A stretch of 60,247 bases of DNA from Candidatus Aceula meridiana (GTDB lineage Bacteria; Omnitrophota; Gorgyraeia; Zapsychrales; Aceulaceae): contig JAVCDE010000011.1 in the NCBI GenBank assembly GCA_030765185.1, positions 1 through 60,247 of the forward strand, in the 5' to 3' direction. This document shows positions 15,893 through 51,500 of this stretch, one piece after another (the stretch's first letter is position 1; each line of letters begins with the position of its first letter). Made by a program: the position numbers and the translations under genes. The notes under the pieces are model-generated. The model saw nothing but the letters and a program-made list of their open reading frames with translations. It made no database searches and was not told the origin of the DNA.

Positions 15893-15917
15893 AGATTTTA
15901 GAGAAGGGAATCAAAAT

Positions 15918-20053: not shown

Positions 20054-20057
20054 TTAT

Positions 20058-30500: not shown

Positions 30501-33500
30501 ACGTATAATCTTGGCATGGCTCGTCCGGGGATCCGAGAAAAAATAGAGCCTACAACCCTGAATATTCTTGACATGATGTTTGGTCGTGATGGCATATTAG
30601 ATGAAGATGTCAACATTTATGGCATTAGGTATAAAAAAGGAATGTCGGAAGGTGACCTTATTGAAGCCCTTTCAAAGGACCTTAAACAATCTTTTTCTCC
30701 AGATTCGCAGAATTCGCAAGGGGCAGAAGAGACGATGTCATTTCAAAGAGCTTCTGATGTCATCCGTGCTAGGGTTAGCAATGAGGGATGGAACGAACGA
30801 TTTCAAGGAGATCCTCAGGTTGTGTATGTAGTTAAGAAAAAAGAGTTATCTCGAGACGATGTTAGGGAAGCTATCTATGGGTACAGAGTTGAAGGGAAAG
30901 ATTTTAAAAAGTATGGAGAACTTATGCGTAAGTTTATCACGCCTGATCCTAAGGAGGTAGCCGATGAGTCCAATCAGGTAGGAGATAATGGCCAAGCAGC
31001 GCTGCCGAGCGTTTATAATTATATAGGGAACAATACCATTTTAGCCAAAGCCGGGATTTCTTCTGATAAAGGGAAGTTTTTCTTTTCTCCTACTGTTGAT
31101 TATTTGGATAAATCTGCTGAAATGAGAAATATGCATGGAACAGAGATGTTCGTGCATGAAGGCAAGAGCCTAAGGCTTGTTACTCCAAAAATGGAACGTT
31201 TGAATTCGAAGCCGAAAATAGGATTCTTTAAGAAGTTAGGAGATGGCGCTGATGCTGCAGAACATAGAGCTTATGCACTTGGCTTCCTTTCACTCACTGG
31301 AGGAACCTGGGTTCTTAGGCAATTTAGCGGAGGCTTGAATTTTGCTACAGGCGGAAGGATTAAGGCACTTCAGGATGCAGATAGCTTTTTGATACGACTG
31401 ATAAACCATTCTTGGAGCCAAACAAAATATCAGGATGTTGTTGCCGATAATTTTTCTTCGTCTGAGGCGGTGGGCATTGGATTCAGAAGAAGCGCTAGCG
31501 AAGAAAGACGAATAATGATGGATCAGGAGAAATTATTTGTTGAGAACACTTTTGGCACAAGTGATATTGCTAAATGGATGTATTTTTCTAATTTTGCTGA
31601 ACAGAAAGTTGACTTTCTTCAGGGAGCCAAGCCATTTTACCTGGAAGTTCAAAAAGGTAAAAACTTACGTAAAGCAGGGCAAACAGGCCAAGGGGTTTTT
31701 TGGACAGGTGTTGGCGTAGCTGGAGAGCTTGGGCAGTTTGCCCTTGAGATGACTCTCGGAAGCCGCCTGATCAAGGGCGTCGTATCTGGTGGAAAAGTGT
31801 TATTTGGTGGGGCAAAAGTTTTGAATTCTCCTGCAGCTATAAGATCTATTTCTTTTGCAAAAAACTTGCTTGGCAAGGGAGGAAAGGCTTCAAGATTACA
31901 AAATGCCATTTTTGAAAAGATTGGATCATTGGTCACTAAAAAAGTGGCATATCAAGCTGTAGCAGGAGAACTCCTTACCTATGGCGTAATCGGCGCAGGC
32001 GTTAACCCTGCTTTGAATCCGAAAAACGGCGGTTATAGCAATTGGAAGAATTATGCAACTGGTTTTGGCATGGGCGTAGCTGCGCCTTTAGTGTTGAGAG
32101 GGGCTGGCGCAGTTTTCAAAGGCGCTAACCGGCTGATGAGCGGAGAATTGATAGGCAATAAAGCTTATCAACAGCTCGCTCGGTTTGTCGTTAAGAATGG
32201 GTTGAAAAATAATCAATTGGCTAGATTTGCACTCGGGGCAGCAAAAGAGGGAGCAAAACTTGGTTTGCGAGTTAGTGGGCGCAATTTTTATCTTGCGACA
32301 TCCACCGTTGCATCTTGGGCTACCGATGGTGCTAATGGGGCAAAAGCAGAAAAAGACACGACCATGTGGGATGCCTTTAAAGGTATTTATAAAACAGGAG
32401 GCCGTGAGATTTTATCTGGAGCTGGGAAGTTTGGAAATTGGGTTGGGATTGAGAATTCCATAGAAAAGAATATTGGGCTCAATCGTCAGAGGGAAAGAGG
32501 ATTATTTGATCACACTATTACGGGAATGGCGGGAACTAATTTTGCGCCTCTTGCTTTCTTCTCGTCTTTTGCTCTTCAAGCATTGGATAGTTATCTGACT
32601 GTACGCTCTGGGGCTATTATAGTTAGCGCGTTCGGCAATCCTATGGAAACTCTACGCGCTGCTCTTGAGCTTCCAGGCATTGTTACGGATAGAGCTAAAG
32701 ATGCTATTAATGGACCTCCTGAAAAAGCCGGATGGGCTCAGTTTGGACGTATTGCTGGTTCGCTTTATGGGTTCTCAAAAGGTGCTAAGGGCCTTGGCGA
32801 AGCAAGCATGAATCATAAGGGATTGCTGAATCCAAAAACTCAGCCTCTCAAGCAGGCTATGCAGCGTGTGCGCGACAAAGGCGTGTGGCACAAGAATACA
32901 AGAACATCAAAGTGGGGAGCAAAAAATACCGTAAGCCTTAAGTTTAAAAAAGGAAAGCTATTGGAGACTTTTGGTTACCGTCGTGCGCTTTTTACTGTGG
33001 AAACTATGAACATGGCGAGTAATTTTCAACTTATCAATACAGCCTTTAGCCTTTTGTATCCAACATTGCAGGCAGGAGGGGGAACGGGCGGAAGATTTGA
33101 TGCTATTCAGTCTTCGGCGTCTCAAATTGCCTATACTCCTGAGGAAATTGCCCGCTCAACTATCGGTATCGCTGTCACCTGGACAGCTTTGAGCGGCGGT
33201 CTAAAAAGCGTTAATCGACGCATAAATAACTATGTAACAAAGGGTAGCGCTCCGGAATGGATGAAGAAAGCAAACAATTATGCTATTGGGAACTATCGCA
33301 CAGTATCTAAAATTACAGGAAAAAATTATAGAATTACTGGAAAAGCCATAACGCCTACAGTTAAATTAGGTTTAGGAGCTGGCATGTACATTCTTGGTAC
33401 GGACACTGAAATTTTTGGTTGGAAAAGCGGTTTAAATTTAAAAGGAACACTGGGCGGCAATCTTATGGCCAACGCAGGGCTTTTAATTGCCGGCACGGGC

Positions 33501-36500
33501 GTTAAAGCAGGATTGAAAAATTTTAGAGGTTCTCAGTTTGCAAAAGGTGTGACAGAGAAATTAAGGCCACAAAAGATGGATGGCGTCTGGCGTATAGGAG
33601 GGAAATTTGACAAAGCAACTAAAACTTTTAAAGGCGGAATAAAGGCCCGATGGATCAGCAACGGTATTACAGAGGCAACTGCGACTACTTTTAAGGAAAA
33701 ATTCAATAAATTCTTTACTCCTGATATTAGCCCTGCAACCCAAGGCGGAGCTCCTCTGGTTAAAATGAAAATAAAATATAATGCTGGACTTTATGCGGTT
33801 GGAGCCGGTGCCGGTGTTTTAACAGGATATATTAGAAATAAAGATAATGAGAATTTTAACAAATGGGATCTCGCGATGTGGGCTCTAGGTGGTATGGTAG
33901 CTACAAAAGCTGTAAAGAAAGCTCCTCAGATTGTTTCTGGTTTAGCTGATGTGGCTGCCACAGGTGCGATTGTTTATGGAACCAAAAAAGCAATTGTTGA
34001 TCCAATGCTTGCTGGCTTTGAGAACTGGATGGGTCATCGTGAGAGAGACAAAGATGTTAAAATCTCAACATATGTTGAAGCCTCAACACCTCATCTTTTT
34101 GACTTGTATGATGTTTTAGATAGCAAAGGACACAAAATTGATGAAGTGAAATCTACTAAAGATCTTAGTAGTCTTGTAGAAAATGGCAAGCTTACTAAAG
34201 CGATCTATATCAATGGAAAAGAATATGCCGCAGGAACTAAAGTTAACGAGTCCATGGCAGCAGCCGCATCAAAACACGAAGCGCTTTATAAAACAGGCAA
34301 GAATGTTCAAACAAATGATTGGGCTTCTGCGCTTGCTCTAGGGGTTTTCTTCCAAGGAGGCCAGAAATTCTTTAAAACACGAAATGATTTATTACGCAAG
34401 GGAAGAGCATATGAACAAGTCGGCAAGGGAGCTATAGGTGGCGCAAAGGAAGCTCTTAAGACAGAAGCCGTTAAAAGATTTGGAAAGCTTTTAAAGCGCG
34501 CAGAGCATCATTCCGGAAGATACAATGCTTATGTTGCTGCCGGCGGCGCAGGAGCATATGCTGCATCCTTTTTTGTCGGCGATGATACAGAAGTCGTAAA
34601 AGGCGTAAGGCTTAAACCGGTTATGCAGGCTGTAGGAGCTACGCTTTTTGCAACAGGTGTAGCTGGTTTAGCAGCTAGAGGTTTAGCCTCTCGCAAGGGT
34701 GTTAGTCTGGGAAGCAAGAAGTCTCTTTTGAAATTCTCACAGTTTACTGCTAAAGCAGGATCAGCGGCAAGCCGGTTTTTAGGAAAAGATTTAATCTTTG
34801 ACAGTGCTGTTAACATGGCTATGGTCATTGCCCCATTGCATGGCGTTATAACCGTATCCTCTTATTTTGGAAAAGAAATTATGTCGAAATCTGCTTCTTC
34901 TGGCATTGAAAAAACAATTTGGGATAGCACCGTTGGCGCATTCTATACCACAGAAAATGATGCTTTGGCCCAGAATATTGACGCCTATAAGCAAGGCGGA
35001 GCTGCTAAAGACATGATGCGTTCAACTGTCTCAGAATATAGTGACTTAAATAATTATAAGGGGATGCAGCGTGCTTTAAAATACGTAGAGCGTTCTCTTT
35101 TTGTTGGACTCGGCGCTGGCGAAGATGGCACAACAAAGATTAAATCTATTTCTGATCTTGTTGATGCTGTAAGAGAGAGAAGGGCAGGCCGTCTTAAAGC
35201 TTCGGGTAGCCAAGGAACAAGCCGAGAAAAGATTGGTGACTTTGTTAATATTCTTTTGACAGATGTTCTTAGCGACACTAATAAATCTTTCGCTGTTAGC
35301 CTTAACCTTTTAAGTCCTCTAGCTCAAGGTGTTCTTCCTGAAATTAGAGTAGTAAACTTTGGGCATCATTTTAAAGCAACAGCTGAGGCTTTCGAATCTT
35401 TATCTCCTAGCGCTTTAAAGCAAGCCGCTAAATCAAAGCATACTAATTTTCATAGCTGGTTTAGAAATACAGTCAGAAATAAAATTTCGATGGCTGTTAA
35501 CGGTACTCGTGAAGAAGTTTTCGATGAAAACATTACAGGGGCCGCTATCAGCCTTTTGCCATTAGGTGCTCAAACCCAAGAAGTTCTTCAAGAAATTGTT
35601 AACAACGGCCCGGGCTTTAACATGAATAAGTATCAGAGTGGCAAGGGCCTTATTGATGCTTTGCGCATTAATAATGGATGCATTCTTGAGATTAGAGCAG
35701 CCAAAGGTCAATCATTTAGCGACAAGCAGCAAGATCAGATTGCTACATTGGAAGGTAAAAGTTACAAGGATCTCGTTAGTGATGTGAAGAGTCTTGATAT
35801 TTTGAATGAATTAAAACAAAAAACAGAAATTGTTATTGGCTTTTCACGCTCAGGAGAAGTTCCTGTTTTTCAAGCAGCTCCAGCGGGGGTTCCTGCCTTC
35901 GCTTCTGTATCTAATCACGACGTCGAAGTTGTTTACGAGGTTGGCAACAAAGAAGAATGGGGCGAAGATTTAAATGTTGAAAGAATAAGCGCTTCTGTAG
36001 AGAATCAATTTGAAAAGAAAGGTTATTCACAGAAACAAAAACAAGAAGTTGCTTACCGTGCTTTAAGAATAGGAAATTTGTCTAAAAATAGACGAAAGGC
36101 TTTTGAAAATATTTTAATTAATACTCTTGATGTCAATAGTGGTGCCGATATGAAGATTGCTGCCCTTGTAGGGGTGAGCGGTCACGATAGAGTTAAGCTG
36201 TCGCCGAAAATCGAGGTTAACGGTAAGATGATAGAGATAGCAATCTCCGTTAGCATGGAAGCTATCCTTAACCGTCGTGCTGTTGATAAGCAATTCGACG
36301 ATGCTGTTCGCAGCGCTCAAAAAGAATTAGGCCTCTATAGTCAAACATTTTCTATGAAGCCAGGAGAAGAGATTAGAAGCCAAAGCGGCTTGTTATCATT
36401 TAAGCTAGATCGAAATATAGAAAAAGCACAAGAAAAGAAAGGCGAGGTTGATCGTTCTCAAAAAACACAAGAGATGTTCCCTGCGTATTATACCGCCTCT

Positions 36501-39500
36501 ATCAAATCTGCCGATGCCATGGTAGATCAGATGCGAACAGGTGAATATCATCATGAAATTCGTGCTTATACTGCTCAGGGTATCATGGAGGATATTTCTA
36601 AGGATATGGCCAGCGCTCAAGGCCAGTATCTTGCGTTTAAGGCTGCAGGAGAGGACAAGGATAAAGATGCAGGACTTGGGTATCATATAGCTGGTTTGTT
36701 TGGTTTGGGTGTTAAAGGACAACAAATTAGAAATGTTGTGAGGGAAGAGCGGAGAACCGAGCTTAAAGAAATATTAGACGACAAGAGAAATGAATTAAAG
36801 TATGACCTTGAAGATAAGAGAATCAGCCAGGAAAAATATGATTCCGGACTTAAGGGTGTTGAGAAACAAGAAAAGAAGCTTGAGACTAAGATTGCAAAAC
36901 AAAAAATATCTATTGTTGATTATTATATGTCATTAGGAGGCCTTAACAAACAATATAAAAAATGGTTTACAAATCAAAGAGGCCTTGAAACAGGAGCTGA
37001 GCAGGGGTTCAGCGCTTATAGCGGTGCTGTCTATGCAAAGGATGCAATTAAAAAGATCGTTGCGTCTGGTGAAATGACAAAAGACGAAGCTCAAGTAAAG
37101 TTTGCTAATGTTTTTAAAGAGCTAGGTGTTTTAGGAAAAACAGATGCCTATGGCGCAAAAGCAGTTACACTCGCTTTGCATCCTGTTTTATCTTATAAAG
37201 CGGCAAAAGATGGTGGATACCAAGGTGTTTATCAAGATTTAGCTAAGCGTGGTATTGCAATTGCTGAAAAGGAAACTGGAGAAAAACTTGATGGAGCAGA
37301 AATTGTTTTAAAACGTCAAGTGCGAAACTTTAAGACTAAGAATATGGTCACAGCCCAAGCACAAGGTGGCAACGAAGTTTGGGTGGATTCTCATGCAAAT
37401 ATCAATTTTAATGTAGGCTTTGATTCTAATAACAACCAAGTTGTTTCTGTTGCGCCAAATGCAACTGGTGAATATAACGCCGGCGAAGGTGCTCATGAAT
37501 TTATCCATTTAGGTGTTCAATCAGCATGGAAGAACAATCAAGGGGATGATAAGTATGGGCGAAAAGGCACAGAATTAAGAAAAGCTGCCCAAGAGTTAGC
37601 AGATGTTCGTTATGGGGGAGACCTTAGTAAAGTTGACTTAAGACTGGACGAAATGGGCGATAATGAAGTTATTACAATGTATCGAAGTGGAATTCTTGGG
37701 TTTAAGGCAATGAAAGACAGGCCAGAGTTGCTAACAGAAATTGATGATTCAATGATGACGCTTGCTTACGACTTAAATCATCATTTTAATCCTTCTAGCT
37801 TGGGAACAAATAATGGCTTGTCTGATTTACTATCTTTAAGCAAGACGGGCGGCAAAGCAAATGAAACTATGATAGCAAATGTTGAATGGGTTTACGGAAA
37901 CGAGGCCGGACGCCGAAACCAAGCTTTGGATAATCAGGTTGTTGAAGGAAACGAAATCTTTAACGAAACAGTGCAAGAAATTTCCAATAAAGATCTTTCA
38001 GGACAAAGCACAACTCAAATTGCCAAGCTTTATACAGAGACGTTTAATCGCATTGCTGAGGCCAAAGGAAGCAATCTTAGAGACGATCCTCGCTTAACAT
38101 CAGTTGCAAGCGGCTTAGATATTTCTACTCCGGAGTATCAGCCAGAGAATACCGGAAGTTTTGTTTTTAAAGGTCAAAATATTACAATTAACGCTTCTAT
38201 CCAAGCACCGACAGCTTCTTTAGAAATTGGTGGAGATGCTGTTGACATGGGATATGAAAATTATAACTTTGCAACAACTTGGCATCTTGGCCAGACTGTA
38301 GATCTTGCTCAACAGCAAAACGAGATTAATCAATCTGCAAAGATTATCGCAGAAGAAGAAAAGCAAAATCAGGTAACCTTTATTGATCCAGCAACGCAGA
38401 AGCCTGTTGTTTCTCAAGCCGGAACCCGCACGAACACTGTTAACTCTTGGGTAAAGCAACAGAGCGGGACAAATCAAGAAAAAAGAAGCAAGGCCGCACG
38501 ATTAGCGATGGCTATTGCTCGTGAAAAGGTTAAAACAGGCGATATCGAAACTTGGGAAGAATTTGGAAATGAAATGCGAAGCGTGATTGAAGAAGCTGGA
38601 TATGGCAACGATGGATTCTGGCATGCGAGAAAGAATATTGTATCCGGCAAAGAAGTGGGACCGATTAGTTTTGGTCAGCATCATGACGGCAGAGAGCTAA
38701 AGGGACTGATTCGTCAGGGAGACGTTGTTAGTCTTAGGCCGTTTATGCGTGTTCCAAGCGGCGTCGGATCTGTTGAAGCCAAGACATTTGTTATGGAAAG
38801 TGTTCCAAGATTCGTTTCTGACACAAACAGTGATATTGTCAAAACACAAGATTTTAACAAAATGATTGAAAACGGACAATACGATCAGGCAATCGATCTT
38901 TTTGAACAATCAGAGAAGAATTTTGGTAAGAGCATTGATAAAAAAGAAGTTAAAGCCAAGCTTTATTCAGACATTATTGAAGATTTGGTGAAGCCTGAGA
39001 AGTTAAAAACAAAAAATTATGATTCAGCTCCGTATGATCAGGCTGTTGCGTTTGTTCACAGAGCCAATAAAGATTTTGGCGATAAGATGTTTGACATCAA
39101 CAGCGCTGAAACAAGCATCTATACGATGCAAGTAAATCATTTAAGAGAAGAGAAGACTAAAACATCTACAACACAGCATGATCAAAAAATTATAGATCTT
39201 GATCAAAAAATTAGCCAGATTGCAGGACAAAAGTATGATGCAAAAATAACGCAAGTTAAGAATTTGAGCTTTGAAAGAGATCATTGGATTAGAGAAGGTA
39301 AATATAGCAAAGCTGTTCAGGCTGTTGAAGGACTCGGTAAAGTCCTAGGAGACGCTTTTAATGTTCCACAAGCTACTGCTCAAATTTATATCACGCATGC
39401 CGTTAAACTAGAAGGAGCAAAGATGTTTGGCGCTGCTGAGAAAGAAAGAAAGAGGGCCTACAAGGCTCTTGGCATTCCAGAAGCCGAACAATCTGATATC

Positions 39501-42500
39501 TTAAAATTGCACAAACAAGCCAGAGAGTTTCATGAGAACAACGAGCATAAAAAAGCAAAAAAGACGCTTGTTAAAGCAAATAAGATTGAGGAGAAATGGC
39601 TTAAAAGAGTAGCTCAAAAACAAGAAGGAATTTATGATAAATTTGGAAAAGCAGGGGGGGATGAAACTGACGGGGAAGTAATCAGCACTTTAAGCGCAGT
39701 TCCAAAGCTCAGAGATCAATTTGCTAAAACAATTGTAAACAGCGTCCCATCTTCTGTTAAAAAACCTCGCGTTTTGTCTATTGGTTTGGGAACTGGTACT
39801 TTTGAAAAGAAATGGCTAATGGACAAGCACGGATTTGATGTTACAGGTCTGGAGTACAATACTGGTTTGGCAAAAACAGCCAACAACAATGGTGTTAAGA
39901 CAATACAGGGAGACGGAAACCAGCCTCTTCCATTTGCGAATGAGTCTTTTGATGTGGCTATTTTTCCAGAGAGTATTGAACATTTAAGCCCAGAATCGTT
40001 CAAAGAGGTTAATCGTGTTTTAACGCCAAGCGGAAAGATTGTAGCGGCTGAAGTTCTTTCTGAAAATAATACTGAGGGAAGAATTGTTAAGGATATTTTA
40101 ACGAGAAAAGAAGTAACAAACGATTATTTAAAGAAATATGGTTTCAAAAATGTAAAAGCAAAAACGGCATCGGGTAGAGCGCAAGGAGCTTTCGGAAAAA
40201 GAGATATCACGATCATTGAAGCCACAAAGGTCTCTTCGAGTGCAATAGCCTCGGAGCCAACCCGTGCACCGCCGACGAGATGGCAAAGAGTGCAAAGATT
40301 TGTTAACAATAACGTTTCTCCAAAGAGCGGGGCAGGAACCTTCTTAACCGCACTTGCCTTTACTTTCGGCCTTGCTCAAAACACACAAGCACAAGATAAT
40401 ACTCAACAAGTTTTGCCAGCCATGGCACCTGCTGCTACACAAATTTCTGTAGCAGAAAACCAGCTTTCATCAATTAATGAAGGAAATATATATTCTGTAA
40501 CACCTCAAGACCTTGAGCAAGAGCTTCAAGCAGATCCTGTTATGACTGTTCCTCAAACGTTAGCTCCAGTTGTTGCTCCAGCACTTTCGACTATTTCGGT
40601 AATCGGACCACTATCGCAAACGACAACAACTAATGTCTCTATTCCAGCCATCGCAAAAACCTCGTCGGCAAGTTCAAACGCTATTGCTAAGGCAATAGAA
40701 TCCAAAGACGCCGAAAAGTTTGTTCAGGCGCTTAAACAAGATAGCTTAGGAACGGCAAGGAAGGTCGAAGATTTTTATGTTGTCGATGACAAAACTTTAG
40801 GAGCTCTCTCAGGATATGATGCTTTGGATATAACGCCAAACGAAAGCACAGCATTCCATATCGCAGACCAGGTCTTTATCACGAAATCAGCCTATGAACA
40901 AATGAGCCAGGGAAATAATGAAAGTCATTTTTCTGTTGAACGCGAAAAAGCACGCATGGAAAAACATGCACTTTCTGACTATCAAGATTATCAAGATGGT
41001 GACGAATGGGCAACGGCAGAATTATATGCAGGATTTAAAGCTGCTGTGAATGTTTTTGGGATTGAGCAGATACAGACACATAAAGAAAACATTTATAAAG
41101 CGATGGAACGGTCTATTGATTCGTTTTCAGGGGATAAATCTTCTAAGGATTATTACAAATTCCAAATACGAGGCGCTGTTGATATTATAGCCCAGAATTT
41201 AAGTGAAGGCAGCGTAAGCGAACGCGCGAGATATTACGAATATTTAAAGAATACGAAAAGTTTAGAAGAAGCCTTAGGAAGCTATTCTAATTATGAAGGC
41301 CTAAGGAAGTTTTATTCGAAGTCTGGGCATGTCGGCGATATCAGTTTCGCGCAGGCGACTCATCGGACTTATGAAAAGTTTAATGAAGAATATGACAAGG
41401 GCCAAGCAACGGCATCCGTTTACCAGGGCAGGTCTCAACAAGAAATCCTTAACGAACTTTCCAAGCAATCACCGGCGGAGATGGCGGCAAAGGTTTACGA
41501 TATATCTAATCCTTTTGCACGTCTCAAAATTAATTCTAACGATCTTGGCGCAGTTTTACAGAAGAGAGATAAAGGTTTCCAACAAGAGTTCTTAAATGCG
41601 ATGGAGACGATTATTTTAAAAGATGTTTCTGCCGGGCTAGAGGTTTTTGATAATCCTCTCGATGTTTTTCAAAGTGATGTTTCTTTGGGAAGGTTCTATA
41701 TCCAAGATACTCTTGGTCTTGAAGCCTTGAGCACAAAGAATTCTTCATCATTCTTAAATACGCCTGCCGTTGATATTTTCAACAATCTTAAAGGGCAGCT
41801 TGATTTTCAACCGATTGTGAGCCAGCGATTATCTCTAGCTGCGCCGAAGGTCAATCAGCTTTATCAAGATGTACTAAAGAAATCTCCGAATCTTTTGATT
41901 TCTAGCGAATTCTTAAGGAACGAAGATAATCAACAGATGGAAGAGGAAATGACAGCGTATAGCGGCTATCTGTTTAAAACAAATGTGCTTCAAAAGATTT
42001 TAACGTTTGCCTCCGAAGCGAAATCAGATGCACAGTATCAAAATCAAGTTGACCAGTATTTATCACAAGGATCTCAGGCAATAGAACAGTGGAAGCCTGA
42101 AATTGCAGAGCTAGTTCAAAGATTAAAGAATGGAAGAACGGGCCTCAAAGATCTTAATCTTGTTGTGACGGAAAGACTAAGACAGAGAATTTTAACCGCA
42201 GTCTTTAATGCGGCTGGAATAGGAGGCCCGGAAGCGATAGACGAAAAAGAAGAATTTTCATATTATCTCTCGGCTATTAAAAAGGGTATGGTTCGGCCGC
42301 TTGTGTGGGATCAAATATCTGTGGCTAAAGAATCCGGCGAAAAAGTGTTTTTAGGCGAAGAATTATTTAAAAACAGAATTCAGTATGAAAAGGGAAAGGT
42401 GGACTCTAGGCCTAAAGCGGTTGTTGTGGCATCGACAAATGATGCAGGAGGTACTTTCTTCCAATACGATACATTGCAAGAACTTGTCCGGTCAGGGTTT

Positions 42501-45500
42501 AACGTTCTTTATTATGAAGTTAAGGCGACAGATGCAACTGATCGTTTATCAGAAGCGAAAGCTTTCTTAAATACTTTAGGAGAGGCTACTTCTGAATCAC
42601 CGGCAGACATCATTGTCTTATCGCATCACGGTACACCTAAAGGCATTAAAGATTTCTCTTTAAATCAAGGAATTTTGAAAAATGGCGGCAGTGTTCTTTT
42701 AGATGCTTGTTCGACGGGCAGAGAAATAAATCAAAACAGGGGGAGCATGGTTAGCTGGTTAGCTTCGCAGCTTCCTCAGGCTGCTCATGTACTCGGTGCA
42801 ACAAAGGGAGTAACTTCTTTAGGGCTTGAGATTAGTCCATCCGGCATTTCTTTAAATGCAGATGCTCCAATATATGATGGCATAACACACCAAACGGCAA
42901 GCCTCAACGGAGATGGTTTGAGTCGTTTTGATGGAACACGAGCACTTTCTATCCAAGCAGCACCTGCAAGCATACCAGCAGGAAACGCAAGCATGGCTTA
43001 TGTGCCAAACCGTGGTTATGTTCCATCAAACACAACCGCCCAAGACCTTCTTGCTAAAGCTCAAGAAATCAAGAGAAAGAGCGATGAAGCTTTAAGAAAA
43101 TTACAAGATCAGGCTCGAGTTCAGAATCAATCTCAAAAGACTCAGCCAACACCACCGCAGACAAACGTAATGCAAACAGGAAGTGTTATGCCAGCTGCTC
43201 CAACGAGCACAAAAGGGGTGTTCAATTTTGTTAAAAAATTCTTTGGTTTTTCACCTCAAAAAGAACAACCATCTCTGATGGCAAAAGCGCAGCCTTCGCT
43301 TGTCAGCTCAGACATTAAAAACGGTATGCCAGCTGCTCCAGCGAGCATAGGAATCTCAAAAACTGCACAAGGAATTCTTGTCCCTGGCGAAGGACTAGCG
43401 TCTAATTCCGGGTCAATATTGGTTACTGTTACCAAGGACAAGGAAGGAAAAGTTACTTTAAATGGCATTCCTGCGAGTTCTCGAACTAGTACAAAATTAG
43501 AAACACCAACTTTTTATCAAGCTCAGAACATCATGAAGGATCTAGGCATTAAAAATATTGATTATTCGAAGAGTTCTTCTATGAAGAGGCCGATAACGCT
43601 GATTATTAATCATTTAAAAAATAATCCTACTGATAGGCAAAAACTTGTTGATGAGATAGAAAAGTATCCTATTGAGCTGGAAGAGTGGTCACGAGCATCC
43701 AATAAAAACGATAAGCCCGCTATCCATGTTGTTGACGGAAACACTCGATTGGCCTTGTTGTACATGTCTCGAGCCGACAAAGACGATACTGTTAGCATTC
43801 CTTCTGTTGTTAGAAACGCAGGGCAATATACGGCACCAAAGACTTTTGTTGCCTCGTCGGCAAGCACAACCGCTCCTCAGATGCCCACGACACCAGTTGC
43901 TTCTGCTACAGAAAAAATTAAAACCATTTCTATAAGCCGATTACTTAGACCTAATGGTGCAGTTGGCAATCAAGGTGTAACGACAGAACAAGTACGTGGA
44001 ATATTGAACAATGTTTTAGGGCTAAACGTAGGTGAGAATTTTACCATGAGAGAGATGGTTGATGCATTTTTGTCTAAGAAATCTAATGTTCAGAAATTGA
44101 TTGATTATACGAACATGAATCCGATCGAAATTACTATTTTACCTGATAATACTGTTCATATTGACGATGGTCATCATAGAGCGTTCTTGCTCAATCAAGC
44201 AAAAGTAAAGAATATTGCAATAGCTTCACTATCAGAAAACACTCTTCCATCAGAAGTAAGCACCTCTGCTAGTTTAGCCGCAAGCGCTATTGAAACAGCA
44301 TCAAATACGACAGGCGCAATGACTTATGCACCAGCGACCACTACTGCAACTGGTTATACACAAATGGCTTACACGCCACCAGCAGGAAACGCAAGCATGG
44401 CTTATGTGCCAAACGGTGGCTATGTTCCATCAAACACAAGCACATCAAATGGAACAAGCTATGGTGCAGGCGTTAACTATACTTCGCCACAAGCCTATAA
44501 TTGGACAAGCAATCCGGTTTATACGTATTCTACAAACACAACCGCTCAAGATCTTCTTTCTAAAGCTCAAGAAATTAAGAGAAAGAGCGATGAAGCTTTA
44601 AGAAAATTACAAGATCAGGCTCGAGACGTTCAGAATCAATCTCAAGAGACTCAGCAAAAGACATCAACACCACAGCAGACAAACGTAACGCAAGCAGGAA
44701 GTGTTATGCCAGCTGCTCCAACGAGCACAGCTGGGGTATTCAGCTTTGTTAAAGAATTCTTTGGTTTTGCACCTCAAGAAGAACAACCATCTCTGATGGC
44801 GGCTGAGACTATATCATCAAATATAACAGCTGTTGGAAAAACTAAGAGCATTACAAAAGAAACAAATCAAAGATTAGCGAAAACAGGATTAGATTTAGAG
44901 CTTAGATCAGATGGCGCAAACGGTTTAGGATGGGAAGAATGGGCAATTCTAAAAGATGGAAAAGAAATAGGAGACGTTAAGGCAGTTCCTAAGACAAACG
45001 GCAATTTGCTTGTCGAGAGCATCGGCCTGGAAGGACGTTATCAAGGACATGGCATCGGATCGAATATCTATATTGCCCTAAACGAAGCCTTAGGCACAGA
45101 AACACAAGGCATCCTATACACAAAAGGTGGGACATTCTCGAAGACTCAAGACACTAAGAAATTTGCAGAAGAAATTAAGAAAGGAAAGCAATTATGGACA
45201 GGACTTACTCAAAAAGGACTTGCTGAGAGAGCAGGCGTAGATTACTACCGAATGAATTCTTACGCGGCTGGCAATCCTTCGAAAGTTTTTGAAATTAAGA
45301 AAATTTCTTTGGATATCGCAGCGCCGAAGATTGCAATGCCGGCTGCACCGCAAAAGATCACGATGCCAACAGCATTCGCAAAATTTGACCGCGTCGGCAG
45401 CACATTTGTTTCAAGCTCATTGCCACAAGCGATTCAAGACGTTATTAAGAGTCTTGAAGCAGATGGCCGTCAAAAAGAAATTCCTTTAATTGCTGGATAT

Positions 45501-48500
45501 TCTATTATTTCGTCTTCGGCTACCGTGGGTACTCCGCAAGAGCTAACTGATTTCTATTTTAGCAATAATTATCCTGATGTTTATTGGAGCACAGATGGTG
45601 ATGTTTATAGTGTTAATGCAGATCTTACTTTAAACGAGAAAATTGATATCGAAATTATTAAAAATGGTGTTGTCATCGTTCCTTCAGACAGTCCAATTGA
45701 TCCGCTTTCGGATATGAGTCGTTTAGGATGGTTTGATCCTAACGCCTTTAGCATGCCGACAACAGTTGCTGCACCGCAATATGCAGCCACAGTTTTCAGC
45801 GGCGATACGCCTCCAGGAAGCACATTCCTTATGTCTAGCAGCGTTGTTAGTGACATTAATATGCTTAAAAAGGCCTTGCCAGCGGATCAATTAGCGCTTG
45901 TTGTTTCAAGCTCTATTATTTATGTTGCGCCTGAAGATTGGAAAAAGACAGCAGCTTCTCTAGCGCCAACGCATTCTGTTTATGCTTATGATGGTAAAAA
46001 CATTCATCCGGTTAGTGAAAACGGCAGCATTACCACAAGCACAATTAAATTTGCTGATATTTCCGGTCAATTTAGTATTTTTGTTGCAGAAGAAGACTTA
46101 CTAGAGGCATTTAACGCTAAGCACAGATTCATGGTTGTTGAAGGCACATACTTCTTTGATAAGACGCTCTACACTCTTAAAGCAACTGTTTCAACCACAG
46201 AAACAGAGATAGAAGAAGATTTTGCTCCTGTAGATGTTCCTCAATTTGAGGTTCCGGACATGACTCCGCCGGCTGAATTTACTCCGGCTGTGCCAACAGC
46301 TCCGATTGCGCCAACATTTATGATTACACCTCTTCTTGGTAAAAAAGAAGTACAATCAGACCAAAAGATGGCTCAGGCGCCTCCGACTACCTTTGTATAT
46401 AGTCTTGCAAAAGCAGAGCCAAACAGCGCAGGTCAAAATCGGCCTTATACCATACCCATACATACCGAACACGCTGTGATGCCATTAGTGCCAGCATTGC
46501 CTGATGTCCCTGTCTCTGAGAATGATCCTAGTACCGGAGGCAATGGCAGCAATAATCCTGTTCGAAAGGCACCTACGCATCAGATGATTGCCTTTGCAAG
46601 AGCTAATGTAAACAAAACTGACATAGTTCAGCCAGTAGGCCTTGCCGCAAGCGCTGCGAGAGAGAATGGCGCAGGTTGGAAGATCGAGATTGCTAAAGCG
46701 ACATCGACAAAGGGCCTTACTACTGGCTTAGATCCGAATCCGCTTTCAGCTGCCGCTCGTTTCCGCAACGAGTCAGGCGGGAGAATAACAGGAAGCGCGG
46801 AACAAGAAGCCATGGACTCTGTGTCGGTATTTGCTTTGACCGATGTAGACGCAAAAGAAGAAAAAGAAGCAAATGTTGTTAAATTGTTCTCTAAGAACGC
46901 TTTAGACGTAGTTAGTCTAAACAACGGAGACGAAAAAGCCAAAGGTGTGCGTTCTGGAGTAGTTGTTGATCTTCAGAGAAATGCCTTCAGGTTAGCCAGC
47001 CTGGTCCTTGCAAAGGGACGAATGAGCTTGAACCGTTCTTTGAACATAGTGAATGCTGCCCCTAGCACTATTAGGGAAAGCGTGATTGCTAAAGGCGCTG
47101 AAAATGCCCGTATCTTAGGCTCTGCCTATTATACTAGGGTAAATGATGTCCTTAATGTGATCTATGCTGATGTCAAGGACGTTGCTCTTTGGATGAATGG
47201 ATCGTTACAGGAAGTGCTTACTGTAATCGCAGGCCTGTTTGTTAGCCCTGTGTATGCTGCAGAAATAAGCGTTTCCGGTGGTGCGCGAGGTGTGTCCTCA
47301 AGCGATGCTGCTAAAACAGTCGAAGAAGATGTAGAGACTGTAGCTGAGCTTAAGGCCAAACCAGCTCTAAGCGTAGATGCGCCTCTAAGAGGCCGCATGA
47401 TCACCTTCCCTATAGTAGGGGAAGATGCCGGAAAAGCTGCAGATGCAAACTCAGTGTCTAACATGCGAAATAGTCTATCACAAGAAGGATTAAAAAGACT
47501 ATTCACACAGCCAGCTTTTGCAGAAATTGGCGTTTCCGGTGGTGCACAAGGTGTGTCTTACGAAGACCGAGCCCCAATCACTGCCCCAGCAGGAAGTATC
47601 TCTGCCAGAGCAGCTAGTTCTATAGGCTCTATAATAAAGAAGGCACTCAGTGCAGTTTACAGCGCCATCGTTCAAAGAAACAACAGAGGTTTCGAGCTTC
47701 AGGGCAAAGAAGTCAGCATCGCGAGAAACTTGATCGCCGGAATCCTTATTCCGACGCTCTTCATACTTCAGGTTCTCCAAATACTGCCCAACGGGAATGC
47801 TGTGTCTCCCGAAACCTTAAACTTAGTACAAAATATTCAGATTTCAGGGACTGACCTTAGCGTATTCAATCATCCTATCGTTAGAATTATAATTCTTTCT
47901 TGGGGCTTTGGGTTCTATTTCTTAGCAAGAAACATGCCGTTTGTGTCATTGCACTTATTTGTAAAATCAGTTCTTTGGATGGACTTTGGTGGTGCTGGAA
48001 CATTCTGGGGCAATTATGGCTATAATGCAACTATCGACATGCTTTTCTATATGACCTATGTTATGGCCGGGGCAGAAGTCCTTAGGCTAGGCTGGAGACT
48101 TCTTAATGGTAAATTCTTAGAGCATTCTAGCTTTAAAGCAATGCAAGATAACTTTGGCACTATTCCTGCTCAAATCCTTTCTGCTCTTGCAGAGGTCACT
48201 TATAGGGCTCAACCAAAATTTACGACTCGTCAAGTTATCGCAGGCGTTGTTACAACCTTTGTCATTCTAACCCTAACGGAGATTTTCCCAGTTGAAGCTT
48301 ACTATATTTACGAAACTTATATTGTTAAAGGACAGCAGACACGATATAGCGGACTTACTCCTGATCGCTGGGATGTTGTTGCATATGCCTTTGGCGGTCT
48401 TTGGCTTACTCCGGTTGCCTTAAAGCTTAGAAACTTAGCTGAGAAGACCAGCAAAGCGATTAGTAAAGCTATTAAAGAGGAATGGGAAGAAGATACGAAA

Positions 48501-51500
48501 GATTTTGATGATGAAGATGAAGGGAACAAATGGGAGCAAGGCTCTAGCGCTGTTGAAACCAAAAAGGCTTCCAAGGTTTCTAGCCCTGATAGAAAAATGG
48601 ATTCCAATATTCCAGCGTTACCTTCGCTACCTTTAAATTCAGCGAATTCTCCAATTATTTATAGCGTAAGCCCACTTCTCTTAATGCCTGTTATGTTAGG
48701 TGCTGGCGTAAGCGCATCTGCTATCGCAGAGGGTGCACTTGTTGCCGCAGGTTTCTTTGGAATTATTTGGTTGCTTAGAAAATGGTTTGCTAAGACAATT
48801 TCTGCACCAAATCGGATCAGTGGAAAACTAAAAGATTTCATGCTGAAGGCGTTGTCAACTGCATCCCTTAACCGTGGCGGTGGGATTGAAGATTTCATGA
48901 CAACGCCTTCTTCTATTATTAACACCATTAAGCTGCTGGCCGGGATTCTTGTACCTTTCCGTGGCAGGAATACAAGTAGAAACGTTCTGCCAGCAGCTTC
49001 TTCTTCAGCTAGCCCTGTATCTAAGAAGACTGAAAAAGCAAGAAGCGTAGTCAAAGCCGTAGTTATCTTTGCAATTATAGCGCTATCAATTGTTGGAGTA
49101 AGCATCAACTTCGGGGCTATAGCCACGTTTATCTCGCTGGTTCCGTTTAAGACATTATTAGTAGCATTGTCTAAAGAGGCGACGATGTTGTTCTTAAGCG
49201 GCACGCTTATCGTGGCTGCTTTAACAGCGAAATTTATCGCAAAGATTTTGAACATAAAAAATAGTAAATTAAAATCAGCGCTATCTTCTTTCTGGGTGCC
49301 GGCATTGCAGTTTACCGTTCTTATCGGATCCACTTATTTATGGGTAATTGCTCAGTCTCAATTTGCTGCATCAATAGCTATTGCCGCTACTTTGTTACCG
49401 TTTATTAAGTTAGCAATGTTTTCAGCGTTGTTCTTTATCGTGGTTTGGGCATTAAATGGAATGGTGGACAACATTGGCAGGATCATAAATGGCGAAGAAG
49501 TTAAGTTGATGAACGGAATTAAATCTCGACTTGGGAGCATGCCTAAACTTAGCAGAGCGGTCTGGCTATCTATAAGAGACTTGAGAAAAGCAAAGAGAGC
49601 AGAGCTAAAGACATCTATGAAGGCACATTTTGTTAAACTCTTTAACGATGTTAAGAAAGGCAACTGGAAAGCAATAGTTAAGGTAGTTGGTGTCACAGCC
49701 TTAGTGTTGACTGTTATTGTTGCTGATCCGGCCTTAAAGATATCGGCCTTTGCCTGGTTTGTTGGGGCTTTATTAGCTGTCTTTGGAAGCTATCTTGTTA
49801 ATGTGTTCTGGAATTTCTTTATGGATAGAATTGACGCTAATGTTAAGACTTTGGATCAGATCGTTGAATACGCCAAAAGAGCTAACGGAGAAGAATATGA
49901 TTCTGAAGCATTGCCTGACGCAACAATCGGAATAATCGAGAAGAGAGCCAAAGAATACGAGGAAAGGATTAAAAGAGCCAGCAAGGTAGGAAACGCCATA
50001 TATAGATTTAACGCATGGATGGAGAGAAGAGTTCAGAATAATCCTACCTTCGCCGGATATCTCGGATTGTATTTCTCTAGGATTTTAATCGCTGCTATTG
50101 GTGTGTGGGTCGCTGGACCTGTGGGAGTAGGTTTAGGATTTGGCGTAGAAGATTCTGTGCTGGAGCCAGTATTAGAGACCATTGGTTTTTCAGCAGAGTT
50201 TATCAAAGGCACCATAGCTAACTTGGTAAAATTAGGATTACAGCATACACAAGGACAACTCGTCAGAGTCTTGCTTATCGTTTTAGGTTATATGGTCGTT
50301 GGTTTAGCTAATAGATTTAGAGCAGCCCAGCAAGGAAAATTTGGCATTGGCACCAAGTCAACACATGTTCTTAGGGCTTTAGTAGAAAACAAAGAGAACT
50401 TGAAGATAGTGGATCAGATAAAGAGTCTATATCAATTAGGCTTGGTAAATGATGTTCTTGGAATGGGTACAAAAAGATTAATAGAAGAAGAATTAGGCAT
50501 GAACAAAGAAGATATGCATTCTATAGGAAAGCGTATTAAAGCTCAAGTTGTTTACAACGTTGTTCCGATGTTGATAGCTCTTGGAGGCATAGCATTATTT
50601 GTTTTACCTCTATTAACTAAAATGTTATGGGCAATCAATCCGATTTTAGGGGCAGCAGTTTTGGCCTTGCCGATAGTAGCTGGTTTGGTTAGTTTAATGT
50701 TTAAGGCAAGGCAAGATTTTGCAGCTAAACATCCTTATTCAAACGTTATCGCGCAACAAGCAGCACAATCTTGGAAGAGCTTCGGCGGAATGTATATTAT
50801 CGGTACAGAGATTAGCGCAATCACTCACGGCGCAGAGTATTTAACTCATATTCCCGGAGTAGGATTTGTATTTGAACCAGTAGACAATATGGCGCAGGCA
50901 TTTGAAGGCGAAGGCGGGTTAATCAGCATTGGTGACCAGCTAATCGGAGCCTTCGAAGGAGCATATGGATTTGTTAACGGAGAGACAATAGAGGAAGTTC
51001 AAGGATTAAGCAGTCAGTGGGTATATTCTAAAGTTCTAGGAGCGGAAGGGGATCTTAAAGATATCCAGATGGCAGAACAACATAGAATCTCTGTAGAACA
51101 AGCTGCAAAAATGAGAGAGCTACAAAATTTTAAGGCCAAGAAAGCTGTTCAGGAAGGTTACAATTCTGAGAATGGCTGGTGGAAGAACATCATCAAATTC
51201 GGTAATGTTGTTCAGGCTAAGGGAGTTGACTTACCTGTTGGTGACATAGACGAGCAGATTAATCTCTTGCAGAAAGAATTGGATATATTAGAAGCAGAGC
51301 ATAAACTTGAAGAATCATTAAAAGAAAAAGAGAGAGTAGAAACACTTTCAGAATTAAGCGAAACAGAAAAGACCAACATGCTTTCTGTTTTAGGCTATGG
51401 CCTGCCGGAAGATGAAAATGCTGAAAGAAGCATGAAAGCCTTCAAGGCAGCACGAAAAGACACTGCTGATTCTGAAACAGACGAAGACAAGGCCTTAGTC

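Follow-up and report, generated by a model that had tools for sequence, protein, structure and literature searches.

The region from 37340 to 45255 of a 60,247-nt stretch of DNA from an uncultured salt-lake bacterium of the Omnitrophota (the whole stretch is called the window below) lies inside a single open frame and carries a string of enzyme-like modules, most of them in a slot whose content differs between related giant proteins. We tentatively propose, at slightly less than an even chance, that this region represents exported, exchangeable conflict cargo, which would resemble MARTX toxins or polyvalent proteins in its working while being a member of neither class. An earlier note had described it as a central cassette of cytoplasm-acting enzymes (zincin, methyltransferase, two ParB domains, and GNAT), strung on low-complexity linkers and proposed as cargo for a target cell; its observation was partly confirmed and its interpretation partly supported. 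The coordinates of all features are compiled in Table 1.

Table 1. Features of the giant gene and its neighborhood (positions in the window)
Feature	Position	Strand	Remarks
Tad-type pilus/secretion locus	1344..20939	+	Upstream of giant gene; Pfam
Giant ORF	21591..60245	+	12,885 aa; frame still open at contig end
Peptidase_C39 domain	22293..22541	+	Pfam 1.3e-10; near N-terminus of giant ORF
HExxH (zincin-like) module, putative	37317..37880	+	Conserved core, outside variable slot
Degenerate Peptidase_M24 (pita-bread) domain	37908..38840	+	Directly after HExxH module; closes left anchor
Variable slot	38796..45851	+	aa ~5736-8087, between two conserved anchors; blastp collinearity
Class I SAM-dependent methyltransferase	39723..40229	+	GxGxG motif (VLSIGLGTG); 0 Cys
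Internal signal-peptide-like element	40275..40394	+	Basic stretch, 13-aa hydrophobic core, AQNTQAQ; read from sequence
Module X2	40698..42260	+	No recognisable family
DUF4347/CHAT-like His/Cys domain	42363..42890	+	aa ~6925-7100; H7013-G7014, C7040
Linker copy 1 of direct repeat	42974..43282	+	Repeat search
ParB1, divergent ParB/Srx domain	43506..43823	+	Motif DGNTR
ParB2, ParB/Srx domain	43908..44243	+	Motifs PNGxxGNQG, DGHHR; aa 7440-7550
Linker copy 2 of direct repeat	44378..44800	+	Repeat search
GNAT-like domain, probable	44862..45260	+	Motif YQGHGIG
Right conserved anchor	45852..47342	+	Starts near motif SSSVVSDI; blastp to G004 (A 8088-8205), G001 (A 8236-8584)
TM-like cluster, ~13 hydrophobic segments	47214..50699	+	Kyte-Doolittle scan
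PG_binding_1 (weak) and Peptidase_M23	53031..53813	+	Pfam M23 4.1e-11; PG_binding_1 0.0029, below cut-off

The Tad locus encodes RcpC/CpaB, a secretin fused to TonB_C, a TadZ-TadA fusion ATPase, unannotated ORFs, and TadG-like, TadB, and TadC proteins (Pfam E-values: RcpC 2.1e-23, Secretin 6.5e-42, T2SSE 1.1e-58, Tad 1.5e-5, T2SSF 1.5e-15 and 2.5e-12). The giant ORF probably continues on contig C12 with 13,934 aa more, giving a total of at least 26.8 kaa; the orthologue of G001 aligns to the 12,885-aa piece and then to the C12 piece, in this order. Besides the C39 domain, the HExxH module, and the M24 domain, the conserved N-terminal part comprises a scaffold of about 5,000 aa without annotation; a second conserved part, beyond the slot, contains the TM-like cluster and, after it, PG-binding and M23. 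A hydrophobic segment ahead of C39 (aa 79-98) was conserved in four of four aligned orthologues; it alone is clearly conserved, and three weaker segments come next. Transmembrane (TM) segments were located by a Kyte-Doolittle scan (19-aa window, threshold 1.6), a crude method that leaves the number in the later cluster uncertain. Among the domains encoded on C12 are sigma-70, CrcB, NUDIX, and CofD; Pfam detected a SecA_DEAD domain neither in the giant ORF nor in the C12 piece.

Comparison by blastp with G004, G252, G226, G259, G316, G001, and G005 showed that collinearity with the relatives extends to aa ~5735, including the HExxH module and M24, and resumes from aa ~8090. Between these anchors, the slot of the window (2,350-2,500 aa) holds the methyltransferase, X2, the His/Cys peptidase domain, both ParB domains, and the GNAT-like domain, while that of G004 (~590 aa) holds an ART-PolyVal domain (42.7 bits, cut-off 31.2) and that of G001, a member of the same genus (~1,020 aa), a second M24 domain (1e-14); in the slot of G005 (~890 aa) no domain was recognised. 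Cassette content thus varies among homologous giants, as the earlier note had predicted, and the module it listed as a zincin belongs to the conserved core instead. Since the flanks of the slot are just 24-33% identical between relatives, part of this variability could be plain divergence, which is less likely because both Pfam content and slot sizes differ. The HExxH, ParB2-family, and GNAT-like modules are sporadic, most copies being located inside giant frames. The low-complexity linkers are real and one of them is duplicated: the direct repeat around the ParB pair consists of three blocks of 62, 93, and 136 nt with 97, 96, and 91% identity between the copies, and the protein copies of the linker are 64% identical. 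The motif SS[SA][AIVL] was found six times in the slot compared with 1.08 times in local shuffles (six reached in 1 of 1,000) and 17 times in the C12 piece compared with 3.5 (0 of 300 shuffles); in G252 and G004, too, it coincides with module borders. Immunity genes, reported earlier as not visible, are indeed lacking, the whole region being a single ORF.

In the left anchor, residues H73, E74, H77, E125, and E130 of the HExxH module were invariant in seven of seven aligned sequences, so that the motif and two downstream Glu residues of the proposed zincin stand; a Pfam match was not obtained, and fold comparison gave no confirmation of a zincin fold. Judged from its sequence, the module is probably a metallopeptidase. 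Of 300 other Omnitrophota genomes, six carry it, with all copies in frames of 2,156-16,310 aa. The degenerate M24 domain behind it had been overlooked, as had the DUF4347/CHAT-like His/Cys peptidase domain in the slot. In the latter, the His-Gly pair and the Cys were invariant in six of six aligned sequences, and one relative (P0090) exceeds the DUF4347 cut-off of Pfam (36.2 against 24.6 bits); the CHAT match is weak, and the copy of the window itself had no Pfam match. The methyltransferase was confirmed by profile comparison as a class I SAM type (Pfam Methyltransf_11: 51.3 bits, well over the cut-off of 21.2; E = 1.9e-13). Its nearest solved relatives, PDB 1ve3 (1.4e-9), 2avn, and MitM, are small-molecule-type class I enzymes; it is no DNA methylase of the kind typical in polyvalent proteins. 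The element following it may have a signal-peptide-like role; a comparable element was seen behind the ParB module in the giant protein of G018. Module X2 had no significant Pfam, PHROG, or PDB match.

[quoted passage not shown] ParB2 accounted for ~100 of 110 matches from a search of 1.84 billion representatives, and its family, found in 4 of 300 genomes, has a profile that matches SbnI (E = 0.0019), SerK (~0.08), and Noc. With 14.5 bits, the ParB2 domain of the window stays under the 23.6 bits required by Pfam ParBc_2, a threshold that one relative, P0019, passes. ParB1 aligned to the ParB2 family profile with an hhalign probability of 95.5% (E = 1.5e-8; HMMER E = 1.8e-5), and homologues beyond this family were not found, also in the search of the 1.84 billion representatives. 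According to blastp, ParB2-family proteins with 38-44% identity are encoded on six IMG/VR viral contigs, one of the records being a complete 343-kb phage with terminase; on viral contigs the family is fused to GNAT, as in jumbo phages, or to a Pol-beta NTase. Searches of deposited phages, plasmids, and PHROGs gave no match for the giant-protein region itself. For the GNAT domain named before, the motif is present and the profile signals are all sub-threshold (Acetyltransf_7, E = 0.012; YjdJ, 5i0c, E = 0.015; for its homologues Acetyltransf_1, 0.017, and Acetyltransf_10, 0.024). Comparison with the GNAT part of ParB-GNAT fusions gave an hhalign probability of 66% (E = 5.8e-5), and from its sequence the domain is probably GNAT-like. 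Modules homologous to it are present in further large proteins from G002 and G005, with one credible genome among 300. Three of the named domains stand on sub-threshold or motif-level support.

The first ~18,000 aa of the giant protein are almost without cysteine. The 12,885-aa piece has 5 Cys, one of them the predicted catalytic residue of C39 (Cys192), vs. ~1.26% Cys in the proteome; along the 2,640 aa of the cassette there is a single Cys instead of the 33 expected (Poisson P ~1e-13). This lone residue, C7040, is the invariant predicted catalytic Cys of the DUF4347/CHAT-like domain, and the C39 Cys is likewise kept. The purge is common to the orthologues (G001, 13 in 14,881 aa; G005, 8 in 8,708 aa; G004, 1 in 4,395 aa). 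In the C12 piece, 65 Cys are located within the final ~8,500 aa, and stand-alone relatives of the methyltransferase have 3-6 each. A Cys-purged carrier fits export; as the purge extends over several TM clusters, it is no simple inside/outside marker.

According to the cargo explanation, the carrier would be a giant, exported, almost cysteine-free protein of a predatory or episymbiotic Omnitrophota bacterium. Because the modules need SAM, NTP, and acetyl-CoA, they would work after export inside the cytoplasm of another cell. Export may be helped by the neighboring Tad machinery or by the carrier's own TM cluster, embedded peptidases could cut the modules free at the linkers, and modules might be exchanged through recombination at these linkers. 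The variable slot, the sporadic modules, the Cys purge, the phage link, the direct repeat, the Tad/C39/M23 context, and the contigs across the slot borders were counted as support and bring this explanation to not quite even probability. Counting against it, immunity genes are lacking, three of the domains have the limited support stated above, and no RNA run was among the listed sequencing runs that hold the region.

SAM, NTP, and acetyl-CoA are on hand in the producer as well, and a cassette that is never exported could serve there in regulation or metabolism, acting on the cell's own substrates, which we consider unlikely. With four N-terminal TM segments and the N-terminus inside, the chain would return to the cytoplasm ahead of the cassette, and an odd number of segments in the later cluster of ~13, if that is the case, would place M23 and PG-binding beyond it on the side opposite to the cassette. 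The sigma-70, CrcB, NUDIX, and CofD domains make sense as parts working in the producer cell and count against exported cargo; in the available text of 10.64898/2026.06.07.730766, the MTase/GNAT 'Module 1' of TM-only giants is taken in the same way. However, TM counts from hydropathy scans are unreliable, slot content is replaced even within the genus, the cassette has an internal signal-peptide-like element, the module families are common to phage proteins, with ART-PolyVal in the G004 slot, and the extreme purge spares the catalytic Cys only, unlike the C-terminal third and the stand-alone relatives. The purge also agrees with an extracellular location, and M24 and ParB1 appear catalytically degenerate, as parts of an extracellular coat could be, whose binding, structural, or surface-acting modules enter no other cell. 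We rate such a coat somewhat lower still, since the retained SAM-binding motif, His/Cys dyad, DGHHR, and GNAT motif A argue for catalysis needing cofactors absent outside cells, and Pfam found no adhesin-type repeats in the slot.

Similarly improbable is a polyprotein ('gene of genes') cut at its junctions into independent proteins serving the producer, some of them re-exported via internal signal peptides; the cassette would then be one such stretch of modules among others. The enrichment of SS[SA][AIVL] in the slot and the C12 piece, its position at module borders in two relatives, and the three peptidase-type domains within the giant protein would agree with this, but the motif is absent from some slot borders, and slot swapping between relatives and the Cys purge are left unexplained; moreover, such processing overlaps with the cargo explanation without excluding it. 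We consider it very improbable that the cassette is an assembly chimera or an insert decaying without function: the genome is a metagenome bin of 33 contigs with the gene broken at a tandem repeat and a low sequencing depth of 1-7x, yet short contigs from four sequencing runs of DNA cover positions 37000-47000 at >=99% identity and span the two slot borders, the frame stays open over 38.6 kb, and the catalytic motifs are intact.

As a giant ORF beside a Tad locus in Omnitrophota, the gene is of a known kind, described in this phylum as 'Archaeovorin' type, C39-headed or multi-enzyme long proteins in the available texts of West-Roberts et al. 2023 (bioRxiv 10.1101/2023.11.21.568195), Nielsen & Lui 2026 (bioRxiv 10.64898/2026.06.07.730766), and Seymour et al. 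2023 (PMC10066038). It shares with them an ORF of >10 kaa, an N-terminal C39 domain, TM segments, a Tad/T2SS neighborhood, and methyltransferase plus GNAT. As far as these texts are available, PF08241 and PF00583 are frequent in Omnitrophota giant proteins, the MTase/GNAT content of TM-only giants is placed on the cytoplasmic face (10.64898/2026.06.07.730766), and the predator V. archaeovorus is reported to express Tad and a giant ORF when attached (PMC10066038); its RNA was detected inside dead prey cells, according to the accessible part of PMC13153191. In their available texts, 10.1101/2023.11.21.568195 and 10.64898/2026.06.07.730766 never use 'cysteine', 'polyvalent', or 'ParB', and those of the papers on Omnitrophota giants contain no description of a slot swapped between conserved anchors of orthologues, of a Cys purge sparing catalytic Cys, of ParB/Srx modules common to jumbo phages, or of a clan-CD-like peptidase. 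Relatives of the same order have frames of 25,804, 44,145, and 85,816 aa.

MARTX (multifunctional-autoprocessing RTX) toxins are very large exported carriers with conserved flanks and few cysteines, whose center is a string of cytoplasm-acting enzyme modules differing between strains, with an embedded His/Cys peptidase. Their defining features are RTX repeats and a C80 protease domain, and they use a type I exporter. The giant protein is alike in outline, being a huge carrier with few Cys, conserved flanks, a variable enzyme string, and a His/Cys peptidase that could release modules. In contrast, its His/Cys domain is DUF4347/CHAT-like, the neighboring machinery is Tad-type rather than a type I exporter, and the carrier is at least 6 times larger and has TM clusters. 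The likeness to MARTX drawn earlier does not extend to the defining features, as Pfam found neither RTX or GD-rich repeats nor Peptidase_C80 in the giant ORF or the C12 piece.

Phages and conjugative elements encode polyvalent proteins, which combine many disparate enzymatic domains in a single polypeptide and whose zincin-type peptidase is presumed to carry out its processing (Iyer et al. 2017, PMC5512222, available text). Shared with them are several kinds of domain, namely zincin-type peptidase and GNAT (both putative here), ParB/Srx, ART, and peptidoglycan hydrolases (PMC5512222, same text), as well as Pfam ART-PolyVal in the G004 slot and the ParB2 family on phage contigs. Unlike them, the gene sits on the chromosome next to a Tad locus rather than in a phage or conjugation locus, and its methyltransferase is no DNA methylase; both ParB domains resemble ParBc_2/SerK. 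The tie to phage multi-domain proteins suggested before is made concrete by the ParB2 family on phage contigs; a phage or plasmid origin and MPTase-PolyVal (Pfam, cassette), which define the class, were not found. ParB-CTPase-fold fusions include ParB-acetyltransferases, one of which binds GTP, and ParB-SAM-methyltransferases, which bind ATP (PNAS 2025, PMC12704722, available text); as in these, a ParB/Srx fold without HTH and dimerisation domains lies near an acetyltransferase. Among solved sequences, the serine kinases SbnI and SerK come closest to the ParB2 family. Unlike all of these, ParB2 belongs to a distinct ~100-aa family, mostly under the Pfam ParBc_2 cut-off, which has an extra N-terminal PNGxIGxQG motif, and here it forms part of a giant ORF in which a 150-aa linker separates it from the GNAT-like domain.

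The open frame that starts at 21591 comprises 12,885 aa, runs to the end of the contig (C20, identical with the whole window) and is open-ended there. A second contig of the genome (1.91 Mb, 33 contigs), C12, begins with a 13,934-aa frame touching its 5′ end, and the first residues of this frame repeat the tandem-repeat peptide found at the end of C20 (...DVDPNSPTFGEYWIYDDVNQTFDVM...). Also, the alignment with the orthologue in G001, a genome of the same genus, covers the C20 piece followed by the C12 piece. Because of the shared repeat peptide and this ordered match, the two frames very probably belong to a single gene that encodes at least 26.8 kaa and is interrupted at the repeat. Relatives of the same order hold open frames of 25,804, 44,145 and 85,816 aa. 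A Pfam search of the whole C20 frame returned Peptidase_C39, Methyltransf_11, Peptidase_M23 and a weak PG_binding_1, while the C12 part contains ROK, CofD, NUDIX, LigT, GNAT, two CrcB fluoride-channel domains, sigma-70 regions 2 and 4 and TPR (loci L024-L026), as well as a weak RelA_SpoT match. The Tad-type locus ends 650 nt upstream of the giant ORF. Its secretin has a C-terminal TonB_C domain, and its TadZ (ParA/MinD-like) and TadA ATPase form one 720-aa fusion protein. The stretch from the ATPase to the TadG-like gene holds ORFs of 575 aa and 698 aa without Pfam family, and a run of 100-160-aa ORFs with high GC and AT skew lies at 10-14 kb; the ORFs of this stretch may be pilins or further Tad parts. 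On the strand opposite the giant gene's TM cluster lies an ORF of 224 aa, probably a chance frame.

Positions of features in the giant gene and its neighbourhood (plain numbers, nucleotides of the window; aa, residues of the C20 frame)
Feature	Position	Strand	Remark
Tad-type locus (RcpC, secretin-TonB_C, TadZ-TadA, TadG-like, TadB, TadC)	1344-20939		upstream of giant ORF
Secretin with TonB_C; TadZ-TadA fusion	2205-3881; 3959-6121		
ORFs from ATPase to TadG-like gene	7166-15598		
Hydrophobic segment	aa 79-98		
Peptidase_C39	aa 235-317	+	Pfam 1.3e-10
Peptidase_M23 and weak PG_binding_1	giant frame	+	Pfam on whole frame
Candidate Ser-Ser-(Ser/Ala)-hydrophobic sites	40233-45915; G000:C12		
Signal-peptide-like element	40275-40394		after methyltransferase
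DUF4347/CHAT-like His/Cys domain	aa ~6925-7100		
ParB2	aa 7440-7550		
Apparent ~120-aa units	45300-46200 (aa ~7935-8060, 8080-8200)		before/inside right anchor
224-aa ORF	48659-49333	-	
Tandem repeat at gene break	59900-60245		
Continuation of the gene	G000:C12:2-41803		ends in TPR repeats

Fragments and orthologues from the Omnitrophota genomes G004, G252, G226, G259, G316, G001 and G005 are collinear with the giant protein up to aa ~5735, the end of its M24 domain. Collinearity resumes at aa 8088 in G004, at aa 8236 in G001 and at aa 8613 in G005, which also matches aa 5743-5984. The intervening slot measures 2,350-2,500 aa in the window. It is ~590 aa long in G004, with the Pfam family ART-PolyVal (42.7 vs cut-off 31.2 bits), ~1,020 aa in G001, with a second M24 domain (1e-14), and ~890 aa in G005, where nothing was recognised, so that the cassette content varies among homologous giants as the earlier note had proposed. 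Since collinearity ends after M24 and the slot contents differ among relatives, the HExxH-M24 pair belongs to the conserved core and not to the cargo, and the string from methyltransferase to GNAT occupies an exchangeable slot. The modules are sporadic among 300 other Omnitrophota genomes: 6 carry the HExxH module, 4 a ParB2-family domain and 2 a GNAT-like match, one of which (L023 of G218, E=4.5e-4) looked unrelated on alignment and was excluded from the domain alignment.

Short contigs from four salt-lake DNA runs, which may include the source sample, tile positions 37000-47000 at identities of at least 99% and bridge both slot borders; no RNA run was present among the runs listed as holding the region. 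A joint of 39641 to 43613 on a single contig was dismissed as a chance match, since one of its sides measures only 22 nt and its ends are loose. The ParB pair is surrounded by a direct repeat with blocks of 62, 93 and 136 nt at 97, 96 and 91% identity. Nothing similar occurs elsewhere in the genome, and the repeat looks like a recent duplication or an exchange using the linker. GC skew drops at 40-48 kb; this was discarded as a mark of foreign DNA, as linkers rich in Pro, Thr, Ala and Gln can explain the drop. Around the start of the right anchor, the conserved stretch that follows the slot, there are apparently two similar units of ~120 aa, each starting with a hydrophobic-SSS-hydrophobic stretch. 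The pattern SS[SA][AIVL] occurs 6 times in the slot vs 1.08 in local shuffles (6 reached by 1 of 1,000) and 17 times in the C12 piece vs 3.5 (17 reached by none of 300). It lies at several module borders but is absent from others; in G252 and G004 it comes after the M24 domain, and it opens the right anchor. It is a candidate for a junction or cutting site.

The identities of the modules are graded. The methyltransferase (Methyltransf_11, 51.3 vs cut-off 21.2 bits, E=1.9e-13) is the only significant Pfam match among the cassette pieces. Its SAM loop reads VLSIGLGTG (GxGxG), its closest solved relatives are class I enzymes of the small-molecule type, and the sole return of a PHROGs search was a generic methyltransferase family. 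The internal signal-peptide-like element that follows it consists of a basic stretch (RWQRVQRF), a 13-aa hydrophobic core and AQNTQAQ; G018 has a similar element behind the ParB module of its 44,145-aa frame (L049). The next module, X2, gave no significant match (best, a NADAR chain with E=0.59). When aa 6706-7905 were searched against 1.84 billion representatives, 110 matches were obtained, of which ~100 fell on ParB2, 7 on the His/Cys domain, 3 on the GNAT-like domain and 0 on ParB1. The ParB2 family keeps an invariant P, P and DG.HR (D87, G88, H90 and R91 invariant in 23 aligned sequences), which corresponds to the DGxxR active-site motif of the ParB/Srx superfamily, and a PNGxIGxQG motif. 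Against solved structures its profile ranked SbnI (0.0019), SerK (~0.08) and Noc (0.3) at the top, all marginal. The window copy scores 14.5 bits against Pfam ParBc_2, below the cut-off of 23.6, and the family is mostly sub-threshold; the relative P0019 passes with 24.8 bits. ParB1 keeps DGNTR and matches the ParB2 family (hhalign probability 95.5%, E=1.5e-8; HMMER E=1.8e-5), and no homologues other than this family were found for it. A combined MAFFT alignment of ParB1, ParB2 and GNAT was dropped because the GNAT homologues were misplaced. The GNAT-like domain reaches at best 16.4 bits in Pfam (cut-off 27). Its motif A (Q/R-x-x-G-x-G/A), YQGHGIG, aligns to KGQGIG of YjdJ and to YQGQGIA of ParB-GNAT fusions, and five weak, concordant signals together with this motif make a GNAT identity probable. 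G002 and G005 have further copies of the module in other large proteins.

The HExxH module has no Pfam match, and HExxH, E125 and E130 are invariant in all seven homologues. Its structural model was poor (pLDDT 60.9), and the fold-search results reflected the M24 part of the model only. Immediately after this module lies a Peptidase_M24 (pita-bread) domain. Two homologues pass Pfam (3.5e-16 and 3.8e-5), the family profile matches prolidases (E=0.0015), and the window copy has no Pfam match. Peptidase_M24 binds its metals by five ligands, D, D, H, E and E. In the alignment the window copy has N, R and other residues at the D and EP motif positions of its relatives, and with ligand columns assigned from these motifs it seems to have lost metal ligands. 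The His/Cys domain keeps the His-Gly ... Cys dyad of clan CD peptidases, with H124, G125 and C151 (alignment numbering) invariant in 6 of 6 sequences. Its relatives match DUF4347 and CHAT, and P0090 passes Pfam DUF4347; the window copy has no Pfam match, and Peptidase_C80 is absent even at E<=10. Against PDB nothing significant was obtained with its profile (a DUF4347 chain, E=1.2). Of the four domain types named in the earlier note, the methyltransferase and both ParB domains are thereby supported, by the Pfam score and by profile comparisons, and GNAT by weak concordant signals. The zincin motif holds, placed in the conserved core instead of the cargo, and the list of domains was incomplete, as the degenerate M24 and the DUF4347/CHAT-like domain had been missed. 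That no immunity gene is present was confirmed.

Searches with ParB2 in PHROGs and among deposited phages and plasmids were negative. The window copy does match proteins on six viral contigs (38-44% identity, E 1e-23 to 1e-26), and the family profile matches 14 of the 78 fetched viral loci. One of these viral records, 343 kb long, is a complete genome that has terminal repeats and encodes a large terminase; terminase is also present in three other records with GNAT-and-tail relatives. The NCLDV capsid family had no match in five viral records, and the control was likewise without a match. Stand-alone members of the family often carry a fused GNAT or Pol-beta nucleotidyltransferase, and the ParB fusion P0015 has 242 relatives in IMG/VR, with no match in GTDB genomes and none in deposited phages. 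According to the available text of PMC12704722, ParB-acetyltransferase fusions are a documented architecture, of which one binds GTP. The phage ParB-GNAT proteins carry a basic C-terminal tail of ~60 aa, ENFADGKNPGRKG...KQRM..W..NM (P0015 residues 387-446; loci L086-L132). In dozens of IMG/VR contigs its identity is 85-97%, far above that of the rest of the protein, and it may be Pfam DUF7230, a family that matched P0007.

The C20 piece contains 5 Cys in 12,885 aa, whereas Cys makes up ~1.26% of residues across 1,117 ordinary frames from this genome. The five are C192 (C39 active-site motif), C416, C426, C4697 and C7040, of which the last is invariant in the His/Cys domain. For the cassette, 1 Cys was found in 2,640 aa vs 33 expected (P ~1e-13); its methyltransferase has 0 Cys, against 3-6 in each stand-alone relative. 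Orthologues are similarly poor, with 13 Cys in 14,881 aa (G001), 8 in 8,708 aa (G005) and 1 in 4,395 aa (G004). The C12 piece has 5 Cys in its first ~5,400 aa and 65 in its last ~8,500 aa. Its Cys content rises from near zero to ~0.8% past aa ~5400, and one ORF therefore holds two compositional compartments. In the available text of the two preprints on such giant genes (10.1101/2023.11.21.568195 and 10.64898/2026.06.07.730766) the word "cysteine" does not occur.

A purge that spares only predicted catalytic Cys points to export of enzymes with cytoplasmic cofactors. In the reading that we favour, the carrier would be exported and its slot modules, which depend on SAM, NTP and acetyl-CoA, would act inside another cell; the embedded peptidases would release them, and recombination at the linkers would exchange them. 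This proposal starts from the observed layout, graded module identities, slot variability, cysteine purge, repeat and phage link. It is also consistent, by analogy, with the lifestyle of the one cultured relative, for which the available text of PMC10066038 reports expression of Tad genes and a giant ORF on attachment and that of PMC13153191 predator RNA in dead prey. Against cargo count the absence of an immunity gene, the span of the purge over several TM clusters and the sigma-70, CrcB, NUDIX and CofD domains in the C12 part; for such content in TM-only giants, passages of the 2026 preprint (10.64898/2026.06.07.730766) favour a location on the cytoplasmic face. Four true N-terminal TMs would likewise place the cassette in the cytoplasm of the producer. 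The segment near the C39 domain listed in the table is the only clearly conserved one, and three weaker ones follow. As three of the four are weak, rich in Ala, Gly and Ser, and contain acidic residues, a topology from counts of hydrophobic segments was rejected as unreliable.

Extending delivery as cargo further, C39-headed Omnitrophota giants could be the cellular equivalent of both MARTX toxins and polyvalent proteins of phages, a scenario that we consider rather improbable as a whole. The cysteine-purged carrier would be exported beside the Tad machine and insert into a prey or host cell via its own TM cluster. Self-cleavage by the embedded His/Cys and HExxH peptidases would then free recombination-shuffled conflict enzymes, drawn from a module pool that jumbo phages also use, and the slot, evolving fast, would determine the host range or the counter-defence of the predator. 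Readings of Omnitrophota giant genes in the accessible parts of the literature are a coat, cell-wall digestion and a cytoplasmic enzyme array. If delivery as cargo were true, Omnitrophota would inject enzyme sets into prey, and the slot would be worth searching for new inter-cell effectors and for determinants of attackable prey. The locus offers testable handles in the swapped slot with fixed borders, the cysteine purge, and the ParB/Srx-GNAT and (in a relative) ART-PolyVal modules that jumbo phages share.

Among known systems, MARTX toxins share the variable central effector string between conserved flanks. However, they have RTX/GD-rich repeats, type I secretion and a C80 cysteine protease, whereas here no such repeat family was found in Pfam, the neighbours are Tad genes and the His/Cys domain of the window is without a C80 match. 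With polyvalent proteins, as described in the available text of Iyer 2017 (PMC5512222), the protein shares disparate enzymatic domains in one polypeptide. Those originate from phages, plasmids and conjugative elements, whereas the giant gene is chromosomal beside a Tad locus; of the polyvalent domain network (MPTase-PolyVal, ART-PolyVal, DdrB-ParB), ART-PolyVal occurs only in the relative G004, and MPTase-PolyVal had no match in the window. The likeness to both groups claimed in the earlier note is thus one of outline, and membership in either fails on the defining features. In our literature search, no paper joining Omnitrophota with "polyvalent" was found. With the Omnitrophota giant ORFs themselves the protein shares an ORF of >10 kaa, an N-terminal C39 near the conserved hydrophobic segment, and Tad genes nearby. 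Available passages of the two preprints and PMC10066038 describe giant genes that combine an N-terminal C39, TM helices and type II/Tad neighbours with methyltransferase and GNAT domains. A divergent SecA_DEAD is present in "most", not all of them, but none was detected in the assembled pieces (E<=0.01 in C20, E<=0.001 in C12). The giant ORF is a known kind of gene and a real feature; what is new is the slot, in which conflict-type modules are swapped within a cysteine-purged carrier.
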